A DNA stretch of 64,000 nucleotides from an uncultured Gemmatimonadota bacterium (GTDB taxonomy: Bacteria > Gemmatimonadota > Gemmatimonadetes > Gemmatimonadales > GWC2-71-9). The stretch spans positions 10 through 64,009 of the forward strand of contig CALGOK010000014.1 in NCBI GenBank assembly GCA_937961295.1, given 5' to 3'. Positions 5,753 through 30,131 of the stretch are shown one piece after another. Both the position numbers and the translations under genes were made by a program. The notes under the pieces are model-generated. The model searched no databases and was not told the DNA's origin. It saw nothing but the letters and a program-made list of their open reading frames with translations. Numbering within the stretch: the first letter of the stretch is position 1; every line of letters starts with the position of its first letter.

Positions 5753-6277
5753 TCAGTCCACGTACGGCACCCATCGCAGCAGGCGCACCGTATCCCGCAG
5801 CACCGCCAGCTCCACGTAGCTCTCCGCCTCGTGCGTGGGGTGGCGCCAGGTGGCGATGGTGCTGTCGCCGCGCGCCTCCTCCGCTTCCGGCGGGCCGAGC
5901 CGCGTGCGGGCGACTTCGCCGGTGGTGGTGCCGATGGTGATCCCGCCCGGGAAGGTCACCGTGGGGTCGGTGGTCTCCGCGCCCAGCAGCAGCACGTTGC
6001 CCGATGCGCCGAGGGCGAGGAACTCGTGCCGCCAGCGGGGATGCACCATGGTGATGGCGGTGTCGGTACCGTAGCCGTGGCGGTTGGGCACCGTGTTGCG
6101 GTCGACGCGGAGCGGTTCGCCGAGGGAGCGCCGTACCGCCGCGGGAGTGTCGCCGTGCATCCCGATCCGGTCGTAGAGTGCCGCCACCGCGTCGCTGCCG
6201 GTGCGGCCCGAATAGCCGCCGCTCGCCCCGGCGCACGCGGTGGTGGCGAGCAGGCCGACGATGATCGCGCGCCTCAT
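5753..6277 (-). CDS. hypothetical lipoprotein
   Basis: ATG at 6277 (in frame with ORF 5753..6685) gives MRRAIIVGLLATTAC|AG, a lipobox. Its start overlaps the upstream stop as ATGA (6274-6277). Confidence 0.6.
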   Translation of the reverse strand: MRRAIIVGLLATTACAGASGGYSGRTGSDAVAALYDRIGMHGDTPAAVRRSLGEPLRVDRNTVPNRHGYGTDTAITMVHPRWRHEFLALGASGNVLLLGAETTDPTVTFPGGITIGTTTGEVARTRLGPPEAEEARGDSTIATWRHPTHEAESYVELAVLRDTVRLLRWVPYVD

Positions 6278-13466: not shown

Positions 13467-14942
13467 TTACCTATCACCGGCAGCTCTTGTCGGAGCAGCG
13501 GACTTGCTCGAGGGTGATCGACCAGACCGGATCGCTTCATGTGCTCGCGCTCGAATCCGTGGCTGAGGCAAGTACTCGGGTATGCTGGATGGGTCCGAGA
13601 TCAGGCGACGAACAGTCACCGAATTTACGGTGAGATCGACAAGATCCGAGTCAAATTGGGTCGATCGTCCCTTGTTAAGTTCCGACAACACGACCTCGAG
13701 CGAGAGTGCCTTTCGGTACGGTCGATTGGTTGTCATCGCATCCACAGTGTCGGCAATTGCGATGATCCGCGCCCCAAGAGGGATCGCGTCTCCTGAGATC
13801 CCATCCGGATAGCCCCTACCATCCCAGCGTTCGTGATGGTGGCGAACACAACTCACGACATATCCCTGGAACCTAGAGAACAATGAGACCAGCTCTGCAC
13901 TTTTTGCCGAGTGGGTCTTCATGATCGCCCACTCATCCTCGTTAAGCTTACCCTCCTTCTGAAGGAGCGGCGCAAACTCTTCGTGGATCTTTCCGACGTC
14001 GTGAAGTAGTGCCGCGTTCTCGATGTCTTCGATCTCTTCAGGCGACAAGCCCAAATCCACAGCGATCGCTCGGGAAAGTCCGCAGACCCGGCGCGAGTGG
14101 CCCGATGTGTATGGATCACGGGCTTCGATGGCCTTCACCATCATCGCGAGTTGTTCCCGAACATTCAGTTCGAGCTCCTCATAGGCAAGATCGAGCTCTT
14201 TGTGGACCTCCTCGAGCCGATTCAGCTTGCCATAGATATGTCGCGCGCCGATCAACGGTAGCACGATCACGAGGAAGAGGAAACGTCCGACACCTTGTGA
14301 TTCATTTGACACCAGGAACAACCAAGCGACGACGATAGCCAGCGAACTAGCGGCAAGATCGTAGCCCAACACCCATACGGTGTTCGCGCGCCAAGTAGAA
14401 ACTATCGGGCGATTGCTTGCCAACGCGACAACGGTGTTGACAAGGATGGAATTGGTGATGAAGTAGACCAGCGCCGCCAACAAGAACACGCCGACTTCGC
14501 CGAGTGCAACGTCGAAAGTGACTAGCCCTGCGGTCGCGGGGTCCAGAAACGCGGGGGGATGAACCCCTCCAAAGAAGCTGTAACAGATGAACGTCAACCC
14601 GACCGAGACGATTCGCTCCGAAATATTGAATGCCGCCTTGATCAGCGGCGTTCGCTCATAGAGCTGTGAGATCGCCTTCACGACGCCAGCGGTCAGCGCA
14701 CCCCAGAAGCCACCAAGGATCAAGCCGACTGCGAGGTGGAACACGAAGACCAGGGAGCCTGTGAGACCCCCGGACTTGTTCTGGGTCCGTGATACCTCCA
14801 GCAGGCACCCGACAAAGAGGAGGCTGAAGAGCGCCCACGCGCCGGGAGCCTCGTCGCCAATGAGAGAGGTTCCCCACAGCACGACCGCTGCAGCGAGGAC
14901 GACTCCGATCACGTACCGACGAACCGCGGCGTTGAAGGGCAT
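13467..14942 (-). CDS. HD-GYP domain c-di-GMP phosphodiesterase with N-terminal polytopic membrane domain
   Basis: 491-aa ORF with about 7 hydrophobic helices, then HSRRV..LLHDVGK..HHERWDGRGYP, an intact HD and GYP signature. Confidence 0.9.
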   Translation of the reverse strand: MPFNAAVRRYVIGVVLAAAVVLWGTSLIGDEAPGAWALFSLLFVGCLLEVSRTQNKSGGLTGSLVFVFHLAVGLILGGFWGALTAGVVKAISQLYERTPLIKAAFNISERIVSVGLTFICYSFFGGVHPPAFLDPATAGLVTFDVALGEVGVFLLAALVYFITNSILVNTVVALASNRPIVSTWRANTVWVLGYDLAASSLAIVVAWLFLVSNESQGVGRFLFLVIVLPLIGARHIYGKLNRLEEVHKELDLAYEELELNVREQLAMMVKAIEARDPYTSGHSRRVCGLSRAIAVDLGLSPEEIEDIENAALLHDVGKIHEEFAPLLQKEGKLNEDEWAIMKTHSAKSAELVSLFSRFQGYVVSCVRHHHERWDGRGYPDGISGDAIPLGARIIAIADTVDAMTTNRPYRKALSLEVVLSELNKGRSTQFDSDLVDLTVNSVTVRRLISDPSSIPEYLPQPRIRARAHEAIRSGRSPSSKSAAPTRAAGDR

Positions 14943-15234
14943 ATGATTGGGAGGAAACCCCAGCTAGTTCGGCTTAACCCCAGCTTACAGTCTCAGCGCG
15001 GAAAAGACCCGCGATGAAATCCACCGCAGCGGCCAGCCATTCCAGCATGTGCGTCACCTCCTCTCCAAAGCCAAATACCCACTGAGAGGGGCAGATCCCG
15101 CTTGACCTGCCTGACGCTTCGCTTGTTTGGACCGCTCGGCTCCGCTCACTGCCGGACCCTGGTGTTTCCCCCCGTACTCCTTTCGGTCAATGCTCCGTTA
15201 CGCGGGCTCGCACCCGCAGGTTGACCTCAATTCC

Positions 15235-21934: not shown

Positions 21935-22214
21935 GTGCCATCCTGGGGGTCGGGGACGCCAGAATGGCAGGAATCTAAGCGCTAACGGGGGTCGGGGGGA
22001 AACGGGACGGGGGCTGACCGGCTTAGTGCGGTGGACTCGATGCGGTGTCCACGATGGAGTAGAGCTGCAGTTCAACAGCGAGGAGGTGTCGGTCGTGGGT
22101 TCGACGCCGCAGATCAGGACGATCCGCGTCAATGCGATGTGAACCTGACGATTCCTCCCGGCACCAGCCTCGAAACCCCGCACCAGCACGGGTCGGGTTG
22201 GTCACCGCGGACAC

Positions 22215-23390
22215 CTAGTCGGGAGTCATTCTGTAGAGGACAGCATCCTCAACTCCGTCGGGATCATCGGATACCAGCAATACGTGGCTTCCACCAAACC
22301 ACCGGAGGCGTTGGGTGCTGTCGAAAGGCAGAGTTCGCATACGAGACTCGCCGCGCCGCAGGAGGATTCCCTTGACATCGGTATGCGACCCGTCTCGAAC
22401 GACCAGTAGCACATCACCGTGGTCAGAGACGGCCACCGACACCAACGGGGACCATATCTCGGGCACCAGCTGGTGCCGGACCATCTCCTGAGCCAACTCC
22501 TGCTGCCTGGGCGAGACGCCTTCGAACAGGCGGCGAATCGCGCTGTCGCGTACCGTGGAGGGGATTAGCGCCGCAGGCACCGAGACCGTTCGAGAGAGAT
22601 GCATACCCCCGTCGAGCGATCGCACGGACACGGCAACCTCAGCAGTCGCACCATAGCCGCTTTTCGGATACGCGGACACTCGGAACATGCCGTTGGATGA
22701 ATAGGCGTGCATGGATGTGTGACAGTAGGGAATCAATCGGGACAGCGAACCCCCATTCGGCATCGCCATTGACACGTAGCACTCTGTCGCCTCGTCGAGC
22801 TCTACTCGCTTCGCGCCCGCACCGTCCGGCTGGGCAACCATCACCGTGAGCTGCGTGGCACCCTCGACCCGCCCTCGCCACCACGACACGCCATTCGGCG
22901 TGGAAGCTTGCAGGAAGGCGCCCACCATGCCGGCCGGTGGGCGCAATGTCACTGTACTGATCACTCTGCCGTCGGTCCTGTACTTCGTCACTCGCCTCAA
23001 GCCGAGGTCGACCAGCCAGATGCTGTCACCGCGCTGGTAGATCTGTGCCACCCCCTGCAGGTCACCCGGACCCTCCCCGCGACGACCGATCCACCTGACC
23101 CGAGTCTCGCCAGGCAGCAGACCGACAATGGCCCCGTCTCGTGGCTGTGAGGCCCAGATCTGCCCATTCGGGCCCACGGTCGCAACCACGATGGGGTCAA
23201 GCACAAACTCACTGCCACGAAGTCGATGCACCTCATGCAGCGATATCCCCTGACTATGCAAAGGGAACGCTGCCGAGCAGGCGATGCACAATGAAAGTAG
23301 CATCACCCAACCAACTGGTGCTTCCGGAGAGGCCATGCTGTCGCGGCGCCCTCCCCAAGTAGATCCGCATGCTGCACGAAAGGCAGTCAT
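22215..23390 (-). CDS. 6-bladed beta-propeller secreted protein (paralog of 7293..8555), lower G+C
   Basis: 391-aa ORF. The start at 23390 is ATGA-coupled to the upstream stop; an alternative is the internal MASPEAPVGWVMLLSLCIACSAAF. GRRGEGPGDL motif. Confidence 0.65.
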   Translation of the reverse strand: MTAFRAACGSTWGGRRDSMASPEAPVGWVMLLSLCIACSAAFPLHSQGISLHEVHRLRGSEFVLDPIVVATVGPNGQIWASQPRDGAIVGLLPGETRVRWIGRRGEGPGDLQGVAQIYQRGDSIWLVDLGLRRVTKYRTDGRVISTVTLRPPAGMVGAFLQASTPNGVSWWRGRVEGATQLTVMVAQPDGAGAKRVELDEATECYVSMAMPNGGSLSRLIPYCHTSMHAYSSNGMFRVSAYPKSGYGATAEVAVSVRSLDGGMHLSRTVSVPAALIPSTVRDSAIRRLFEGVSPRQQELAQEMVRHQLVPEIWSPLVSVAVSDHGDVLLVVRDGSHTDVKGILLRRGESRMRTLPFDSTQRLRWFGGSHVLLVSDDPDGVEDAVLYRMTPD

Positions 23391-24076
23391 CGCGCTCGTT
23401 CGCGCTTCGCGTGCGCAAGGAGTGCCACTAGGCCTTTGGAGTCAGGCACGTACCGCAGGAGGTCTCCGTTCACGACCAACGTTGGGGTCCCGCTGCCCCC
23501 TAGCCGGTTAGCCAACGCCATGCCTCGAGTAATGCTCATCACACTGTCCTCGGACGCCGCGCAATCGTTGAACGCGTCCCTGTTGCGGATCTGTGCCTTT
23601 TCGGCGAAGAAGTCGAATCCGGTGCGACCTATCGAATCCTGCCAATGATAAAGCGCATCCACCATAGCCGGAAACGCGTCCTGGTGAGCGGCGCATTCCG
23701 CGACTCGCGCGGCGTCGTAGGCATCGGCATGGTAGGGCAGTGGCCAATGGTGGAAAACCAGCGCCACATCTCCGGGATTCGCGAGCATCACAGGCATGAG
23801 CACGGATTCGTGGAAGTAGCGGCACGCGGGACATGGGAAGTCTGCGAACTCGACGATCGTCAGTGCAGCGGAATCTGGCCCGATCCGTCGCCCTTCGCCC
23901 ACCAATTCCTCCCAGTTGTCGACTGGGACTGGCGCATAGTCTCGGATGCTACGCGGGCGGAGGCGCGGGTCGGCCGACAACTCGCGCCTCACGACAGCCA
24001 CTGTAACGACGAGGGCACAGGCAACGCTCAAGACCGCCAATAGCGTGCTGAAGCTGACTTTCGTTCGCTGGCTCAC
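23387..24076 (-). CDS. DsbA-family thiol:disulfide oxidoreductase with N-terminal membrane anchor
   Basis: GTG start preceded by GGGAG. TM helix FSTLLAVLSVACALVVTVAVV. Thioredoxin-fold active site FPCPAC. Late GTPTLVVNG motif. Confidence 0.8.
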   Translation of the reverse strand: MSQRTKVSFSTLLAVLSVACALVVTVAVVRRELSADPRLRPRSIRDYAPVPVDNWEELVGEGRRIGPDSAALTIVEFADFPCPACRYFHESVLMPVMLANPGDVALVFHHWPLPYHADAYDAARVAECAAHQDAFPAMVDALYHWQDSIGRTGFDFFAEKAQIRNRDAFNDCAASEDSVMSITRGMALANRLGGSGTPTLVVNGDLLRYVPDSKGLVALLAHAKRERAR

Positions 24077-24358
24077 GAAATAGCACTCCCACGACCACGA
24101 TCACCGGGATCGCCAGCGCTGGGTACGGAGGCAAACTGCGACCAGCTCACGATGCACCCGCCCTGGCCTATCACACAGCACCACAACGCGCGCAAGTCGA
24201 TACTCGCCGCCTCCATCCTCGTGAAGTCGTACCGGCCTCTAGTTGGCATCGCAGGCCGTGGAACCGTTGTAGCAACACTTGACCGTGAAACTTCCCTGAC
24301 CGTTGGTACACTGGATCTTCTCGGCCTGCGTCGGACAGTTGAGATGCCCCCAATTGCA

Positions 24359-24514
24359 TTAGTTCTGCGTAAGCTCAGACTGGCTAGGACACGAGCCCTC
24401 GTACGTGGTTTCCTTGAGGTAGCACTCAGGAACTCGCCGCGGTGATGCGAGGAGTGACACCGCGCCGAGAACGGTTGCACAGGATGCGAGTACGGTAACG
24501 CGCTGAGGTGACAT
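24359..24514 (-). CDS. small secreted peptide (51 aa). The same frame stays coding-like past its TAA for 39 more Cys-rich codons, to 24239.
   Basis: ATG at 24514 with GGAGG 9 nt upstream. Sequence MSPQRVTVLASCATVLGAVSLLASPRRVPECYLKETTYEGSCPSQSELTQN*. See the finding for the extension. Confidence 0.4.
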   Translation of the reverse strand: MSPQRVTVLASCATVLGAVSLLASPRRVPECYLKETTYEGSCPSQSELTQN

Positions 24515-24876
24515 CACGGGAGGCCTCCGCAACAGTTGTGGTTTGCACGCACTGGAATCACGAGTCCCGAGGCAATACCCTGTCCTAGAGATGCGGCACT
24601 GCGAATGACCTCTGTACGATTCATCAACGCACCCTACCAGCCGCGGGCGGGTGGGACGAATCGAACGACCACCGGACGGCATCGGCACCGAATCGACCGA
24701 AGTGTCGGAAGCCTGTCCCACCCCGCGGCTTGAAAGGCCCTCCAGGCGCTTCGCGACATGCCCGTATCAAGTCCTGCACCGCTTTGCCGCACGATGAGCG
24801 CGATGGGTTACAAGCTAGAAGAGGTCGGTACACCCAACCTACTCCAAGGTTGTGCTAGTGTTTTTCCCAGTACCGG

Positions 24877-25257
24877 TTGACGGCCGGCTCGACCGTGGAC
24901 ATTCTCCACTCCTCCCCCGACCGGAGTCGTTCGTGTGCCCCCCCCCCCGAGAACGCCGCACCCACCCACCTGCCGCTGGTCCTGCCTCCCGAGTTCCTCG
25001 CCTGGCTCCGTACCCGATACCGACTGACGCCACGGCACTGTGACCTGCTGCGCTGCCGCGCGCAGCTGATGGTGCCCAAGGAGATCGCCGTCGAGCTGAA
25101 CCTCGAGGTCGCAACCGTTCGCCGCCTGCAGGCGTCGGTGCTCGAGCGGCTGCGCATCGGCGGCGGCGAGAAGGGACTATTGCGCTGGATGGCGAATGCC
25201 CACGACCGCTGGCAGCGGGAAGCCGCGGCGGTCGAGTCGGAGTTCGCCGCCACCTGA
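24877..25257 (+). CDS. small LuxR/GerE-type HTH transcriptional regulator
   Basis: C-terminal LTPRHCDLLRCRAQLMVPKEIAVELNLEVATVRRLQASVLERL. The start is uncertain (TTG at 24877). A C11 tract lies in the 5' part. Confidence 0.6.
   Translation: MTAGSTVDILHSSPDRSRSCAPPPENAAPTHLPLVLPPEFLAWLRTRYRLTPRHCDLLRCRAQLMVPKEIAVELNLEVATVRRLQASVLERLRIGGGEKGLLRWMANAHDRWQREAAAVESEFAAT
24938..24948 (+). repeat. C11 homopolymer tract
   Basis: gtgCCCCCCCCCCCgag, encoding A-P-P-P in the LuxR-type ORF. It is the longest homopolymer I saw in the window. Confidence 0.9.
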
Positions 25258-27045: not shown

Positions 27046-27064
27046 GCGCGCGGTGAGGCGTCGT

Positions 27065-27157
27065 CAGCGGTGGGCCACGGAGCGGATGCTTCGGCCCTTC
27101 GCGCTATCGGGAGTGCCGACACGCACGGCCGGCCAGGAGCGCAGTGGCCCACCGCTG
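27065..27157. repeat. 93-bp element with 14-bp terminal inverted repeats (family B), copy 1
   Basis: CAGCGGTGGGCCAC ... GTGGCCCACCGCTG. Near-identical to 27746..27838. Confidence 0.75.
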
Positions 27158-27179
27158 GCGCGTTCCAGAGTTTCGTTCG

Positions 27180-27699: not shown

Positions 27700-27745
27700 G
27701 CCGCCATCGCGCGCCGCCAGCGGCGCGCCCGCACCGGACTGGTGT

Positions 27746-27838
27746 CAGCGGTGGGCCACGACGCGGATGCTTCGGCCCTTCGCGCTATCGGGAGTGCCGA
27801 CACGCACGGCCGGCCAGGAGCGCAGTGGCCCACCGCTG
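27746..27838. repeat. 93-bp TIR element (family B), copy 2
   Basis: Same length and termini as 27065..27157, with 2-3 substitutions. Confidence 0.75.
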
Positions 27839-27887
27839 ACGACATCGAGACTCGGGGACGGCCCGCGCACGCAACTGCAGCATCCGC

Positions 27888-28892
27888 TCAGATCGCGGTC
27901 GCCTCCAGGTCGATGAGGACCGAGCCAAGCGAGACGCGCACCACGTTTCGGCCCGGCGACGGACCCATGAACCAGCAGCACACCGAGGCGCGGCCGTCGA
28001 CCACCTCGTAGCGGTTCTCGGGCCGGAGGAATCCTCCGCCTTCAATGACCTGCGCGTCCAGCACCTGTGTCCCAGCCAGCAGGTTGCCGAAGTTGTCACG
28101 GAACTCGAGCAGGAACGCTGTCTGGAGGAATCCCCGCGGCTTGAGCACCTGGCCCGCGCCAGCGAGGATGCGGACTTGTGATGCGGGTCCCGGAACCACC
28201 CGGACGTCCCAGCCCACCTCCGTCGGCGAGACGCCGCCTTGCGAAGTGCGCGCGGTCACCCGGTGCAGCCCGGGCAACGTGCCGAAGCGGACATGGGTGG
28301 CCCGCGCGTATCCGTCGCGGTCGGTCATCGACTCCGCGGTGATCACCGCGCCGCCGGCGTCGCCCTCCCATGCCACCGGCACGCCGGCGACCGGGTAGCC
28401 GTCGAACGTGGTGGCTTCCGCCACGAATGCACGGGGTGACACCACCCCGACCGTTCCGCCCGCGAGTCCCGCCGGATCGATGACCGGCAGCATCCGCTCG
28501 GCGATCGGCACGATCGCGGTCGCCCGCAGCGTCACGCTCGCCTCGTTACCGCCGACGATCGTGGCCACGAGCTCGTTCACTCCTGCACCGGGTCCGAGCT
28601 CCCAGCGGTGGATGCTGGCGATGCCGTCAGCCCCCGTGACCGCCTGTCCACCACCGGCCCCGCCGCCGGCACCGACCGCGAACACCACGCGGACACCTTG
28701 CACCGGGTAGCCGCTCTTGGTGACCCGAACCGCCGGCGCGACGGCGACCGCCTGACCGGTGTAGGCACTCTGTCCGTCCCCGGCAGCGGCGGCGATCGCC
28801 AGCGGGATCGGCTCGGGTTCGGGCAGCACGTCGGCGCCACCGCACCCGACGACTGTGAAAGCACACAGGAAAGCCACCAGGGGTCGTGACAT
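27888..28892 (-). CDS. lipoprotein with tandem Ig-like (Big_1/invasin-type) domains
   Basis: Lipobox FLCAFTVVGC|GG. Repeated blocks of the type G.PV.GV.V.F....GGG......VTGADG.A...W.LG. Confidence 0.7.
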   Translation of the reverse strand: MSRPLVAFLCAFTVVGCGGADVLPEPEPIPLAIAAAAGDGQSAYTGQAVAVAPAVRVTKSGYPVQGVRVVFAVGAGGGAGGGQAVTGADGIASIHRWELGPGAGVNELVATIVGGNEASVTLRATAIVPIAERMLPVIDPAGLAGGTVGVVSPRAFVAEATTFDGYPVAGVPVAWEGDAGGAVITAESMTDRDGYARATHVRFGTLPGLHRVTARTSQGGVSPTEVGWDVRVVPGPASQVRILAGAGQVLKPRGFLQTAFLLEFRDNFGNLLAGTQVLDAQVIEGGGFLRPENRYEVVDGRASVCCWFMGPSPGRNVVRVSLGSVLIDLEATAI

Positions 28893-28986: not shown

Positions 28987-29967
28987 TTACGTCCCCGTCG
29001 CCGTGAACGTGACCGTCACGCCCTCGACCGTCACCTGCAGCGCGTTGTGTCCGGGGCCGAGGATCCAGCCGGTGACGGTGGCAACACCATCGCCGTTGCT
29101 GGTCACCTGCGGATTGACCACGCTGCCGCTGCCGCTGGTGATCATGAAGGTCACCGGCCGGTTGGGCGCCACGTTGCCGTAGGCATCGCTCAGCCGCACC
29201 GAGGGCGGGGTGCTCACGGCGCTTCCAGCCGGTGCACTCTGGCCGTTGCCGCCGAGCCGCGCGAGGGCGGTCACCGCACCGGCCTCGCCGGTGGCGCGGA
29301 ACACCACCGGTGCGCAGCGCCCGTCGCACTGCACCGTGGCGATCAGCGTGTTCTCGCCGGCGGTGGTGCCGAGCACCCACTTGAGCACGCCGGCGGTGCC
29401 GTCGCGATCGGTGACGGCGTCGCCGTAGCGCATCCCGCCGCCGCCAGTGCCGATCCGCCATTCCACCGCCACGCCCGGGATCGGACGCCCCGCCCCATCG
29501 GTGACCCGCAGCACCGGCCGGACGGTCACCGGCAGCCCCACCGTACCGGTGATGGCGGCACCCTGCACCGGTGCCACGGCCACCGGATTGGATGTGGTGG
29601 AGAGCGCGGTGAAGTAGATCGGCGAACCGACCGCGTCGGTGACCGATGCCTCGACCGCCTGCGCGCCCGCCGGGCCGAGGGTCCATCCCTCGACGCGGGC
29701 GATGCCGTCGGGACCGGTCACCGCGGTGGCGCCCTGCAGCGAGCCGCCGCCGGCGCTGACCCGGAAGTGCACGGTGACCCCGGCCACCGGCGCACCGCGC
29801 CGGGTCACCAGCACCGCCGGAGCCTGGGCCACGTTGGTCCCGGCGATCGCCTCCTGCGCAGTGCCGGCGTGGATGGCGAGGACCAGGTCGGTGTCGGGGG
29901 TGCTGGGCGCGTAGCCCTGGCAGGCCGCGAGGACCACCGCGGCGAGGACGGGAATGCGATATCGCAT
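28987..29967 (-). CDS. lipoprotein with tandem Ig-like (Big_1/invasin-type) domains, paralog of 27888..28892
   Basis: Lipobox VLAAVVLAAC|QG. Three repeats such as GAPVAGVTVHFRVSAGGGSLQGATAVTGPDGIARVEGWTLG. Confidence 0.7.
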   Translation of the reverse strand: MRYRIPVLAAVVLAACQGYAPSTPDTDLVLAIHAGTAQEAIAGTNVAQAPAVLVTRRGAPVAGVTVHFRVSAGGGSLQGATAVTGPDGIARVEGWTLGPAGAQAVEASVTDAVGSPIYFTALSTTSNPVAVAPVQGAAITGTVGLPVTVRPVLRVTDGAGRPIPGVAVEWRIGTGGGGMRYGDAVTDRDGTAGVLKWVLGTTAGENTLIATVQCDGRCAPVVFRATGEAGAVTALARLGGNGQSAPAGSAVSTPPSVRLSDAYGNVAPNRPVTFMITSGSGSVVNPQVTSNGDGVATVTGWILGPGHNALQVTVEGVTVTFTATGT

Positions 29968-30032: not shown

Positions 30033-30125
30033 CACCGGTGGGCCACGGAGCGGATGCCCCGGCCCCTCGCCCCATCGGGAGCGCCGACACGCACGGCCGG
30101 CCAGGAGCGCAGTGGCCCACCGCTG
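30033..30125. repeat. 93-bp TIR element (family B), copy 3 (more diverged)
   Basis: CACCGGTGGGCCAC ... GTGGCCCACCGCTG. The internal differences from copies 1 and 2 are mostly T>C. Confidence 0.7.
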
Positions 30126-30131
30126 GCGAGA

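Follow-up and report, generated by a model that had tools for sequence, protein, structure and literature searches.

What does an in-frame stop codon signify in the middle of what otherwise reads as the gene of a small, cysteine-rich secreted protein? The question is raised by positions 24239-24514, on the minus strand, of a 64-kb stretch of DNA from an uncultured Gemmatimonadota bacterium, the whole of which we refer to as the window. The initial annotation of this locus had offered three causes for the stop: a recent nonsense mutation, an assembly error, or stop codon readthrough. Below we consider these alongside two further possibilities, namely that the truncated product is itself functional and that there is no gene at all.

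Layout of the interrupted gene

Re-reading of the minus strand reproduces the reading frame as it was originally laid out: an ATG at 24514 behind a GGAGG, an in-frame TAA, a start-less 39-codon extension in the same frame, and a closing TAG. The features of the gene, from its 5' end to its 3' end, are as follows:

24524..24528, minus strand: Shine-Dalgarno-like GGAGG, 9 nt before the ATG at 24514-24512 (read from the sequence)
24446..24514, minus strand: start codon and predicted signal peptide, residues 1-23, MSPQRVTVLASCATVLGAVSLLA
24362..24445, minus strand: first part of the mature protein, residues 24-51, with RR, C31 (Cys1), Y32, G40 and C42-P43 (Cys2-Pro) (from alignments)
24359..24361, minus strand: in-frame TAA, codon 52, directly before Cys3 (from the sequence and the alignment)
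24242..24358, minus strand: rest of the mature protein, 39 codons with Cys3-Cys8, xCP and CCYNG (from the alignment, the G+C content of third codon positions [GC3], and the best-frame analysis)
24239..24241, minus strand: TAG, the ancestral stop of the small gene (in homologs, the end lies no more than a few residues away)

We infer signal peptide cleavage after SLLA, without use of a prediction tool; the N-terminus of the small protein aligns with the N-termini of intact homologs. Upstream of the TAA lie 51 sense codons, MSPQRVTVLASCATVLGAVSLLASPRRVPECYLKETTYEGSCPSQSELTQN (MSPQ...LTQN), and downstream of it a further 39 sense codons in the same frame, CNWGHLNCPTQAEKIQCTNGQGSFTVKCCYNGSTACDAN (CNWGH...CDAN), among which ATG, GTG and TTG are all absent and which would go untranslated if the TAA is obeyed. 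Recounting alters three of the figures first given for this product: the upstream part is 51 rather than 50 aa long, the downstream part holds six Cys (C53, C60, C69, C80, C81 and C88) rather than seven, and the mature read-through product has eight Cys rather than nine, as the ninth (C12) sits within the signal peptide. Being even in number, the eight Cys fit four disulfides. No sigma-70 promoter, intrinsic terminator or Rfam family was found around the small-protein gene, and the window contains no paralog of the small peptide elsewhere.

Two genes follow on the same strand and, together with the small gene, make up what we refer to as the cassette (short repeats within it look like chance):

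23387..24076, minus strand: DsbA-like oxidoreductase of 229 aa with an N-terminal membrane anchor (Pfam)
22215..23390, minus strand: secreted NHL/DUF5128-type beta-propeller, a 391-aa ORF (profile homology)

Coding signal versus chance

The most basic objection to a gene at this position is that open stretches and Cys codons may arise by chance in G+C-rich DNA. An open 39-codon stretch carries little weight by itself in such DNA: dinucleotide shuffles produce one in 38% of cases, and 65% of all six-frame 39-aa windows are open. At least six Cys within 39 codons, however, are rare, occurring with P=0.0002 in shuffles and in 0.27% of six-frame windows. The G+C content of the downstream part at codon positions 1, 2 and 3 is 0.41, 0.54 and 0.74, respectively, and the G/C-rich third positions remarked on in the initial annotation are borne out by a GC3 of 0.74 in the 39-codon frame versus 0.53 in the overlapping 62-aa ORF.

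A codon log-odds test places the small-protein frame as the best of six in both halves. Using a codon model from eight typical window genes, the test gives p=0.001 for both halves taken together, p=0.04 for the upstream half and p=0.004 for the downstream half, whose lead over the next frame has p<0.0005; a small model derived from the two adjoining cassette genes gave no significant result. The formal test of codon bias that had been proposed for this frame thus lends it moderate support, which comes from the model of typical window genes and not from the two-gene cassette model. What refutes the chance explanation is the presence of homologs, down to E=2.7e-13, with conserved synteny (described in the following sections), and we regard its probability as practically negligible.

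Two other readings of the same stretch were considered and set aside. Translational coupling via TAATG to the 62-aa ORF, which lies in another frame, was rejected on the low GC3 of that ORF (0.53) and because its frame is not the best one. An antisense 97-aa ORF at 24152-24445, whose codon register is shared with the peptide frame, scores worse and has no homolog support.

An undescribed family of small secreted proteins

Using the read-through product as query, we searched 1.84 billion representative proteins with HMMER (phmmer). The search yielded five true small homologs of 87-96 aa, all of them uninterrupted, with alignments that cover residues 2-88 (E=2.7e-13 to 3.1e-06):

P0123, 91 aa, E=2.7e-13
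P0124, 96 aa, E=3.7e-12
P0125, 90 aa, E=1.5e-08
P0128, 87 aa, E=1.8e-06
P0130, 93 aa, E=3.1e-06

The remaining four of the nine matches (P0126, P0127, P0129 and P0131) are spurious, being long repetitive proteins. Intact or partial copies of the small gene also lie upstream of DsbA-like genes in contigs L004-L007, L008, L009, L013 and L017/L018, and tblastn recovers small-gene copies in L004-L009. The continuous homologs that the initial annotation had suggested looking for therefore exist, and in them the part past the TAA is conserved, including all six Cys.

In the alignment, the conserved Cys fall at residues 31, 42, 53, 60, 69, 80, 81 and 88 of the window protein. Family members begin with a hydrophobic N-terminus that ends in SLLA and is followed by a conserved xxRR (SLLAxxRR), and they share the motifs G-x-C-P, G-C-P and C-C-Y/F-N-G. 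The window sequence has the eight Cys, SLLAxxRR, xCP and CCYNG, with N in place of the G before CP. A continuous ORF of 87-96 codons is present in the homologs and missing solely from the window copy, where the TAA occupies codon 52. The residues aligned with this TAA (just before Cys3) in homologs are D, K, E, L, I, E, E and Y, and codons found there include AAG, GAA, GAG and TAT; the site is a variable-loop position. The TAA TGC of the window corresponds to GAA TGC in contig L008, and a single transversion suffices to turn the latter into the former.

Other routes did not lead to this family: a word-indexed protein search with the read-through product gave no match, nor did pattern scans of genome_contigs and metagenome_contigs with the small peptide, and the family was reached only through the DsbA-like homologs and their contigs and through the exhaustive HMMER search. 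Neither the small protein nor any of its homologs is recognized by a Pfam or NCBIfam model, and a profile of the small protein has no sequence match in the PDB. The family of small eight-Cys secreted proteins is undescribed.

Comparison with the family also allows the two sides of the stop to be set against each other. The window sequence deviates at 3 of 12 highly conserved positions in the C-terminal part (G59N, A62T and N85S) and at 0 of 7 in the mature N-terminal part, and it carries a two-residue deletion in the last loop. Its BLOSUM score per column (C-part minus N-part) is -0.35, versus +0.31 to +0.77 in the five others, and in no other family member does conservation drop from the N-part to the C-part. 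As this excess divergence (3/12 vs 0/7; rank 1 of 6) is not statistically significant, we take it as a weak sign of what may be relaxed constraint after the stop.

The stop codon recurs in other assemblies

If the TAA were a sequencing or assembly artefact, the true codon would be a sense codon. However, the TAA is reproduced exactly in two independent assemblies in ENA that derive from other samples, ERZ869938 (NODE_1166, 21 kb; L001) and ERZ869942 (NODE_40958, 1.8 kb; L002). The former contig is 100% identical to the window over the 3.5 kb compared; the latter is 99.8% identical, with differences only in a G-rich stretch approximately 600 nt upstream. These differences (positions 71-100 of L002) fall just beside a run of 11 G at 24941-24951, which lies between a LuxR-like ORF and the cassette, and near the end of the L002 contig; they are probably assembly noise.

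The metagenome assemblies are of low coverage (6.2 and 4.1 for the two ENA contigs, as given in their SPAdes contig names), which leaves some room for error. Nevertheless, three assemblies from at least two samples agree at the TAA and the change is a substitution, unlike the homopolymer-length errors of contig L014, so that an artefact is extremely unlikely. (In L014 itself, which has the same cassette as L013, five homopolymer-length deletions relative to L013 split the small and propeller genes; we attribute the small-gene frameshift there to an error-prone assembly and discount it.) The database members of the neighbour-protein clusters show no differences at all (100% identity), i.e., a single strain has been sampled, and no close relative with a sense codon at the TAA site was found among them.

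Predicted fold and the truncated product

AlphaFold2, supplied with the six-sequence family alignment, predicts one compact domain at moderate confidence (mean pLDDT 68). The pLDDT is approximately 70-88 over residues 31-88 and falls below 50 for most of residues 1-22 (1-13, 15-17 and 20-22), as expected of a signal peptide. Strands are predicted at residues 33-39, 66-71 and 75-81, in addition to short helices. A Foldseek search of the PDB with this model gave no match (best E=0.34). The strand at 33-39 is the only one before the stop, and its possible sheet partners are found only among 66-71 and 75-81. Because the sole strand of the N-part pairs only with strands of the C-part, the 28-residue fragment left in front of the stop (with two of the eight Cys) should not fold in the manner of the family.

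These predictions bear on the idea that this strain uses the truncated product as its functional form, in which the signal peptide is followed by 28 residues that could form one disulfide. The N-part of the window sequence is indeed the best conserved of the family in that region (mean identity 0.43, BLOSUM 2.39 per column), which speaks for this idea. All eight-Cys homologs are nevertheless full-length, and even the shorter six-Cys forms run past the stop position; the modelled single domain needs both halves; and gene callers left the locus as intergenic, with the 51-aa product annotated in no assembly. We consider a functional truncation very unlikely.

Readthrough or recent nonsense mutation

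A leaky TAA would present a different picture, in which some readthrough yields the full eight-Cys protein and the gene is functional at a reduced or regulated level. Such a gene would be expected to look much as this one does downstream of the stop, where the frame is intact, retains all conserved Cys and has a coding-like GC3, and its partner genes are intact as well. The stop itself tells against it: no homolog has a stop at the TAA site, where relatives have sense codons, and the predicted folding of the 114 nt that surround and follow the stop is no more stable than that of shuffled sequences (z=+0.79). Moreover, no tRNA gene, and hence no suppressor, lies within the 64-kb window, and TAA also terminates other coding-like ORFs there (it ends 3 of the 42 long ones). 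Among the stops of bacteria studied, UAA is terminated with the greatest efficiency, above all when U follows, as at the stop of the small gene. We judge readthrough to be unlikely.

Among the causes initially offered, then, the nonsense mutation remains; the assembly error gives way to the agreement of the three assemblies, and readthrough to a stop that is not conserved and has no RNA structure. The locus probably represents a recent nonsense mutation in a member of the undescribed family. One base substitution would have made the codon before Cys3 into TAA, with GAA to TAA or TAT to TAA being the simplest changes, and translation would end after 51 residues. Signal cleavage would leave a 28-residue fragment with two of eight Cys that could not form the fold, and the truncated product would presumably be inactive. 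The gene would be a young pseudogene, or equivalently a natural knock-out, beside two intact partner genes. Past the TAA, the 39 codons show neither another stop nor a frameshift, and none of the six Cys has been lost, which leaves two options: a very recent mutation, or selection that still acts to some degree. The intact partner genes are equally expected if the small protein is still made. As in ordinary nonsense pseudogenes, there is one in-frame stop in a conserved ORF, fixed in the sampled population; what sets this case apart is that the stop lies in an undescribed family and that the remainder of the cassette is intact.

The DsbA-like and propeller neighbours

The two neighbouring genes had been described as a membrane-anchored DsbA-family oxidoreductase with a CPAC motif and a beta-propeller protein, and both assignments hold up. 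The first encodes a membrane-anchored DsbA/Thioredoxin_4 protein with a CPAC active site at residues 82-85 (23822-23833) and a GTPT cis-Pro-type loop. It matches Thioredoxin_4 (PF13462; E=9.3e-23, 81.7 bits, cut-off 23.2) and DSBA (PF01323; E=5.7e-08, 33.2 bits, cut-off 25.6). We found 191 homologs of it, and the few with a named source are from Gemmatimonadales, Gemmatimonadaceae or Longimicrobiaceae.

The propeller gene overlaps the DsbA-like gene by 4 nt, and its start is likely M19 at 23336, which gives a protein of 373 aa. With E values up to 10 allowed, the window protein by itself gives no Pfam match, nor does it match any model in NCBIfam, and a genome_contigs pattern scan with the 391-aa protein found no match. 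Its assignment as a propeller comes instead from profiles and homologs. A profile of four propeller-family members (A3), compared with the PDB, matches the NHL domain of Thin (6d69; E=5.6e-11) in five stretches and also the NHL domains of TRIM2 (E=5.5e-10), TRIM3 and TRIM71, the range being 5.6e-11 to 1e-4. Alignment of the same profile with the L013 neighbour protein by hhalign spans 312 columns at 97.8% and E=6.5e-13, and that neighbour protein passes the Pfam threshold for DUF5128, '6-bladed beta-propeller'. The window protein is thus like the six-bladed NHL/DUF5128 propellers in showing homology at the profile level, and unlike them in having no direct Pfam/NCBIfam match. A single-sequence AlphaFold model of the propeller is all-beta with runs of four strands, but is unreliable (mean pLDDT 41). 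Two Cys (C204 and C223) are conserved, with a family spacing of approximately 16-19 residues, enough for one disulfide. Homologs of the propeller with 35-39% identity follow the DsbA-like gene in contigs L004-L012.

A conserved three-gene cassette

The genes keep a conserved order (small, DsbA-like, propeller), and at least seven distinct loci besides the window carry the trio (L004-L007; L008; L009-L011; a contig of JGI 3300056388; L013; L015/L016; and L017/L018, this last from the Gemmatimonadales MAG GCA_039915645.1). In L012 the DsbA-like and propeller genes alone are seen, as the contig stops short of any small gene. The contigs of the closest DsbA-like homologs (50-63% identity) carry a 90-96-aa ORF, the DsbA-like gene, and a 371-385-aa gene that overlaps or abuts the DsbA-like gene. 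The small-protein family thus carries synteny with the DsbA-like and propeller genes.

The small protein itself varies between loci. Besides an eight-Cys form like that of the window, there is a six-Cys form without the CCYNG...C tail in P0128, L013 and L017/L018. In the more distant lineage of L015/L016 the gene order is DsbA-like, small, propeller, and the small gene there (L015, a 474-kb contig, positions 5784-6023; L016, positions 1868-2107) encodes a different 79-aa eight-Cys secreted protein, MRNV...CYCDTNINGCP...CCYGWYVG. The gene linkage thus holds while the small protein diversifies.

Beyond the trio, neighbours differ between loci, apart from a GCV_T aminomethyltransferase gene that the window and L013 share, no more than approximately 1.2 kb from the cassette, which points to a chromosomal, vertically inherited location. 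Searches of viral contigs found no relatives of the small peptide or the propeller. In base composition the cassette stands apart from its surroundings:

22100..24870, no strand assigned: cassette as a stretch of lower G+C content, 0.58-0.63 (one 300-nt segment at 0.67) versus 0.70-0.73 in the flanks

The GC3 of the cassette is about 0.70, versus about 0.9 in the flanks within the window. Across the window, L004, L013 and L015, the trio genes have a GC3 of 0.6-0.7 (up to 0.79 in one small-protein gene) versus 0.8-0.93 in the flanks, even though in two lineages the cassette has the same housekeeping gene, GCV_T, as a near neighbour.

The initial annotation had likened the trio to a small disulfide-rich effector or a bacteriocin-like module. 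Gene context does not bear out this label: no transporter, immunity or maturation gene is conserved beside the trio, the cassette adjoins housekeeping genes, and conservation around the small gene extends to the DsbA-like and propeller genes only. On the other side of the cassette, a divergent 126-aa ORF at 24877-25257 (plus strand) has a sub-threshold match to the GerE/LuxR helix-turn-helix (E=4e-4). We considered this LuxR-like ORF as a cassette member and rejected it, as other loci do not share it next to the cassette and its GC3 of 0.86 is host-like.

Other features of the window

Several further features were observed in the window. An element of approximately 95 nt occurs in three copies between genes (27063-27160, 27744-27841 and 30033-30128); the copies are 78-89% identical across a 120-nt repeat, with a nearly invariant core of approximately 95 nt, and end in perfect 14-nt terminal inverted repeats, CAGCGGTGGGCCAC ... 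GTGGCCCACCGCTG. In appearance it resembles a repeat of the MITE/REP type or a structured RNA. Flanked by this element are two adjacent genes (27888-28892 and 28987-29967, minus strand) for secreted proteins with Big_1 Ig-like domains. Elsewhere, a gene at 13467-14963 (minus strand) encodes a 498-aa HD_5 (HD-GYP-type) protein with a weak match to the MASE9 sensor; its GC3 of 0.66 is atypically low for the genome, and it terminates in TAA.

Possible working of the cassette

Each of the three products starts with a hydrophobic segment for export or anchoring, and the module would thus act in the cell envelope. There, the anchored DsbA-like protein may put four disulfides into the small protein and one into the propeller, and the small protein and the propeller may act together in the periplasm. 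The strict linkage between small protein and propeller suggests that the two bind each other, with the small protein as a subunit, ligand, substrate or inhibitor. Taken to its full extent, this leads to the proposal of a new periplasmic two-protein machine of Gemmatimonadota, in which the small protein is an obligate subunit, ligand or inhibitor of the propeller and which has its own oxidase. We regard this proposal as rather doubtful. If it were true, the strain sampled here would be a natural knock-out of the small subunit, or else low-level readthrough of the TAA would keep the subunit supplied.

Two characterized systems invite comparison. In uropathogenic E. coli, DsbL/DsbI occurs together with the beta-propeller enzyme arylsulfate sulfotransferase, AssT (Grimshaw et al. 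2008, pmid 18565543, as listed in PMC6067686). AssT-DsbL-DsbI and the cassette are alike in that the gene of a DsbA-type oxidase stands beside genes of secreted disulfide proteins, a beta-propeller included, in an operon-like arrangement. The cassette differs in having no DsbB/DsbI-type partner, in having a propeller that is NHL/DUF5128-like rather than an arylsulfotransferase (to which there is no Pfam match), and in adding the small eight-Cys protein; it is also known from sequence alone. We rejected its membership of the AssT-DsbL-DsbI system.

The second comparison is with methylamine dehydrogenase (MADH). MauB is its beta-propeller heavy subunit and MauA its small, Cys-rich light subunit, and MauD is a thioredoxin-fold CXXC protein needed for six disulfides. 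All three are contained in the methylamine dehydrogenase cluster (bioRxiv 10.64898/2026.03.05.709764). The cassette likewise combines a secreted propeller of approximately 380 aa, a thioredoxin-fold CXXC protein, and a small, disulfide-dense secreted protein. Beyond this the two part ways: the small protein has no similarity to any PDB chain, MADH light chains included; its family has no conserved Trp pair for the TTQ cofactor; the profile of the cassette propeller matches NHL repeats only, and not the MADH heavy chain; and no mauE- or mauG-like genes are present. We accordingly rejected membership of the mau system on the light subunit, the TTQ Trp and the heavy subunit alike. Were the two-protein machine real, it would be an unrelated parallel to MauA, MauB and MauD.

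Literature searches on the feature combination of the cassette and on DUF5128 gave no result. The stop codon itself is a matter of ordinary gene decay and calls for no new biology, and for annotation the locus is better marked as a pseudogene of the small eight-Cys family than left as empty intergenic space. The family is rare, with about five clusters among 1.84 billion representatives, and is tied to a predicted DsbA-like oxidase and a propeller, in a cassette whose linkage was found in a little-studied phylum, the Gemmatimonadota. This linkage leads to the hypothesis that a DUF-class propeller acts on, or together with, a disulfide-rich partner, and the cassette may add an example of disulfide catalysts dedicated to particular substrates.
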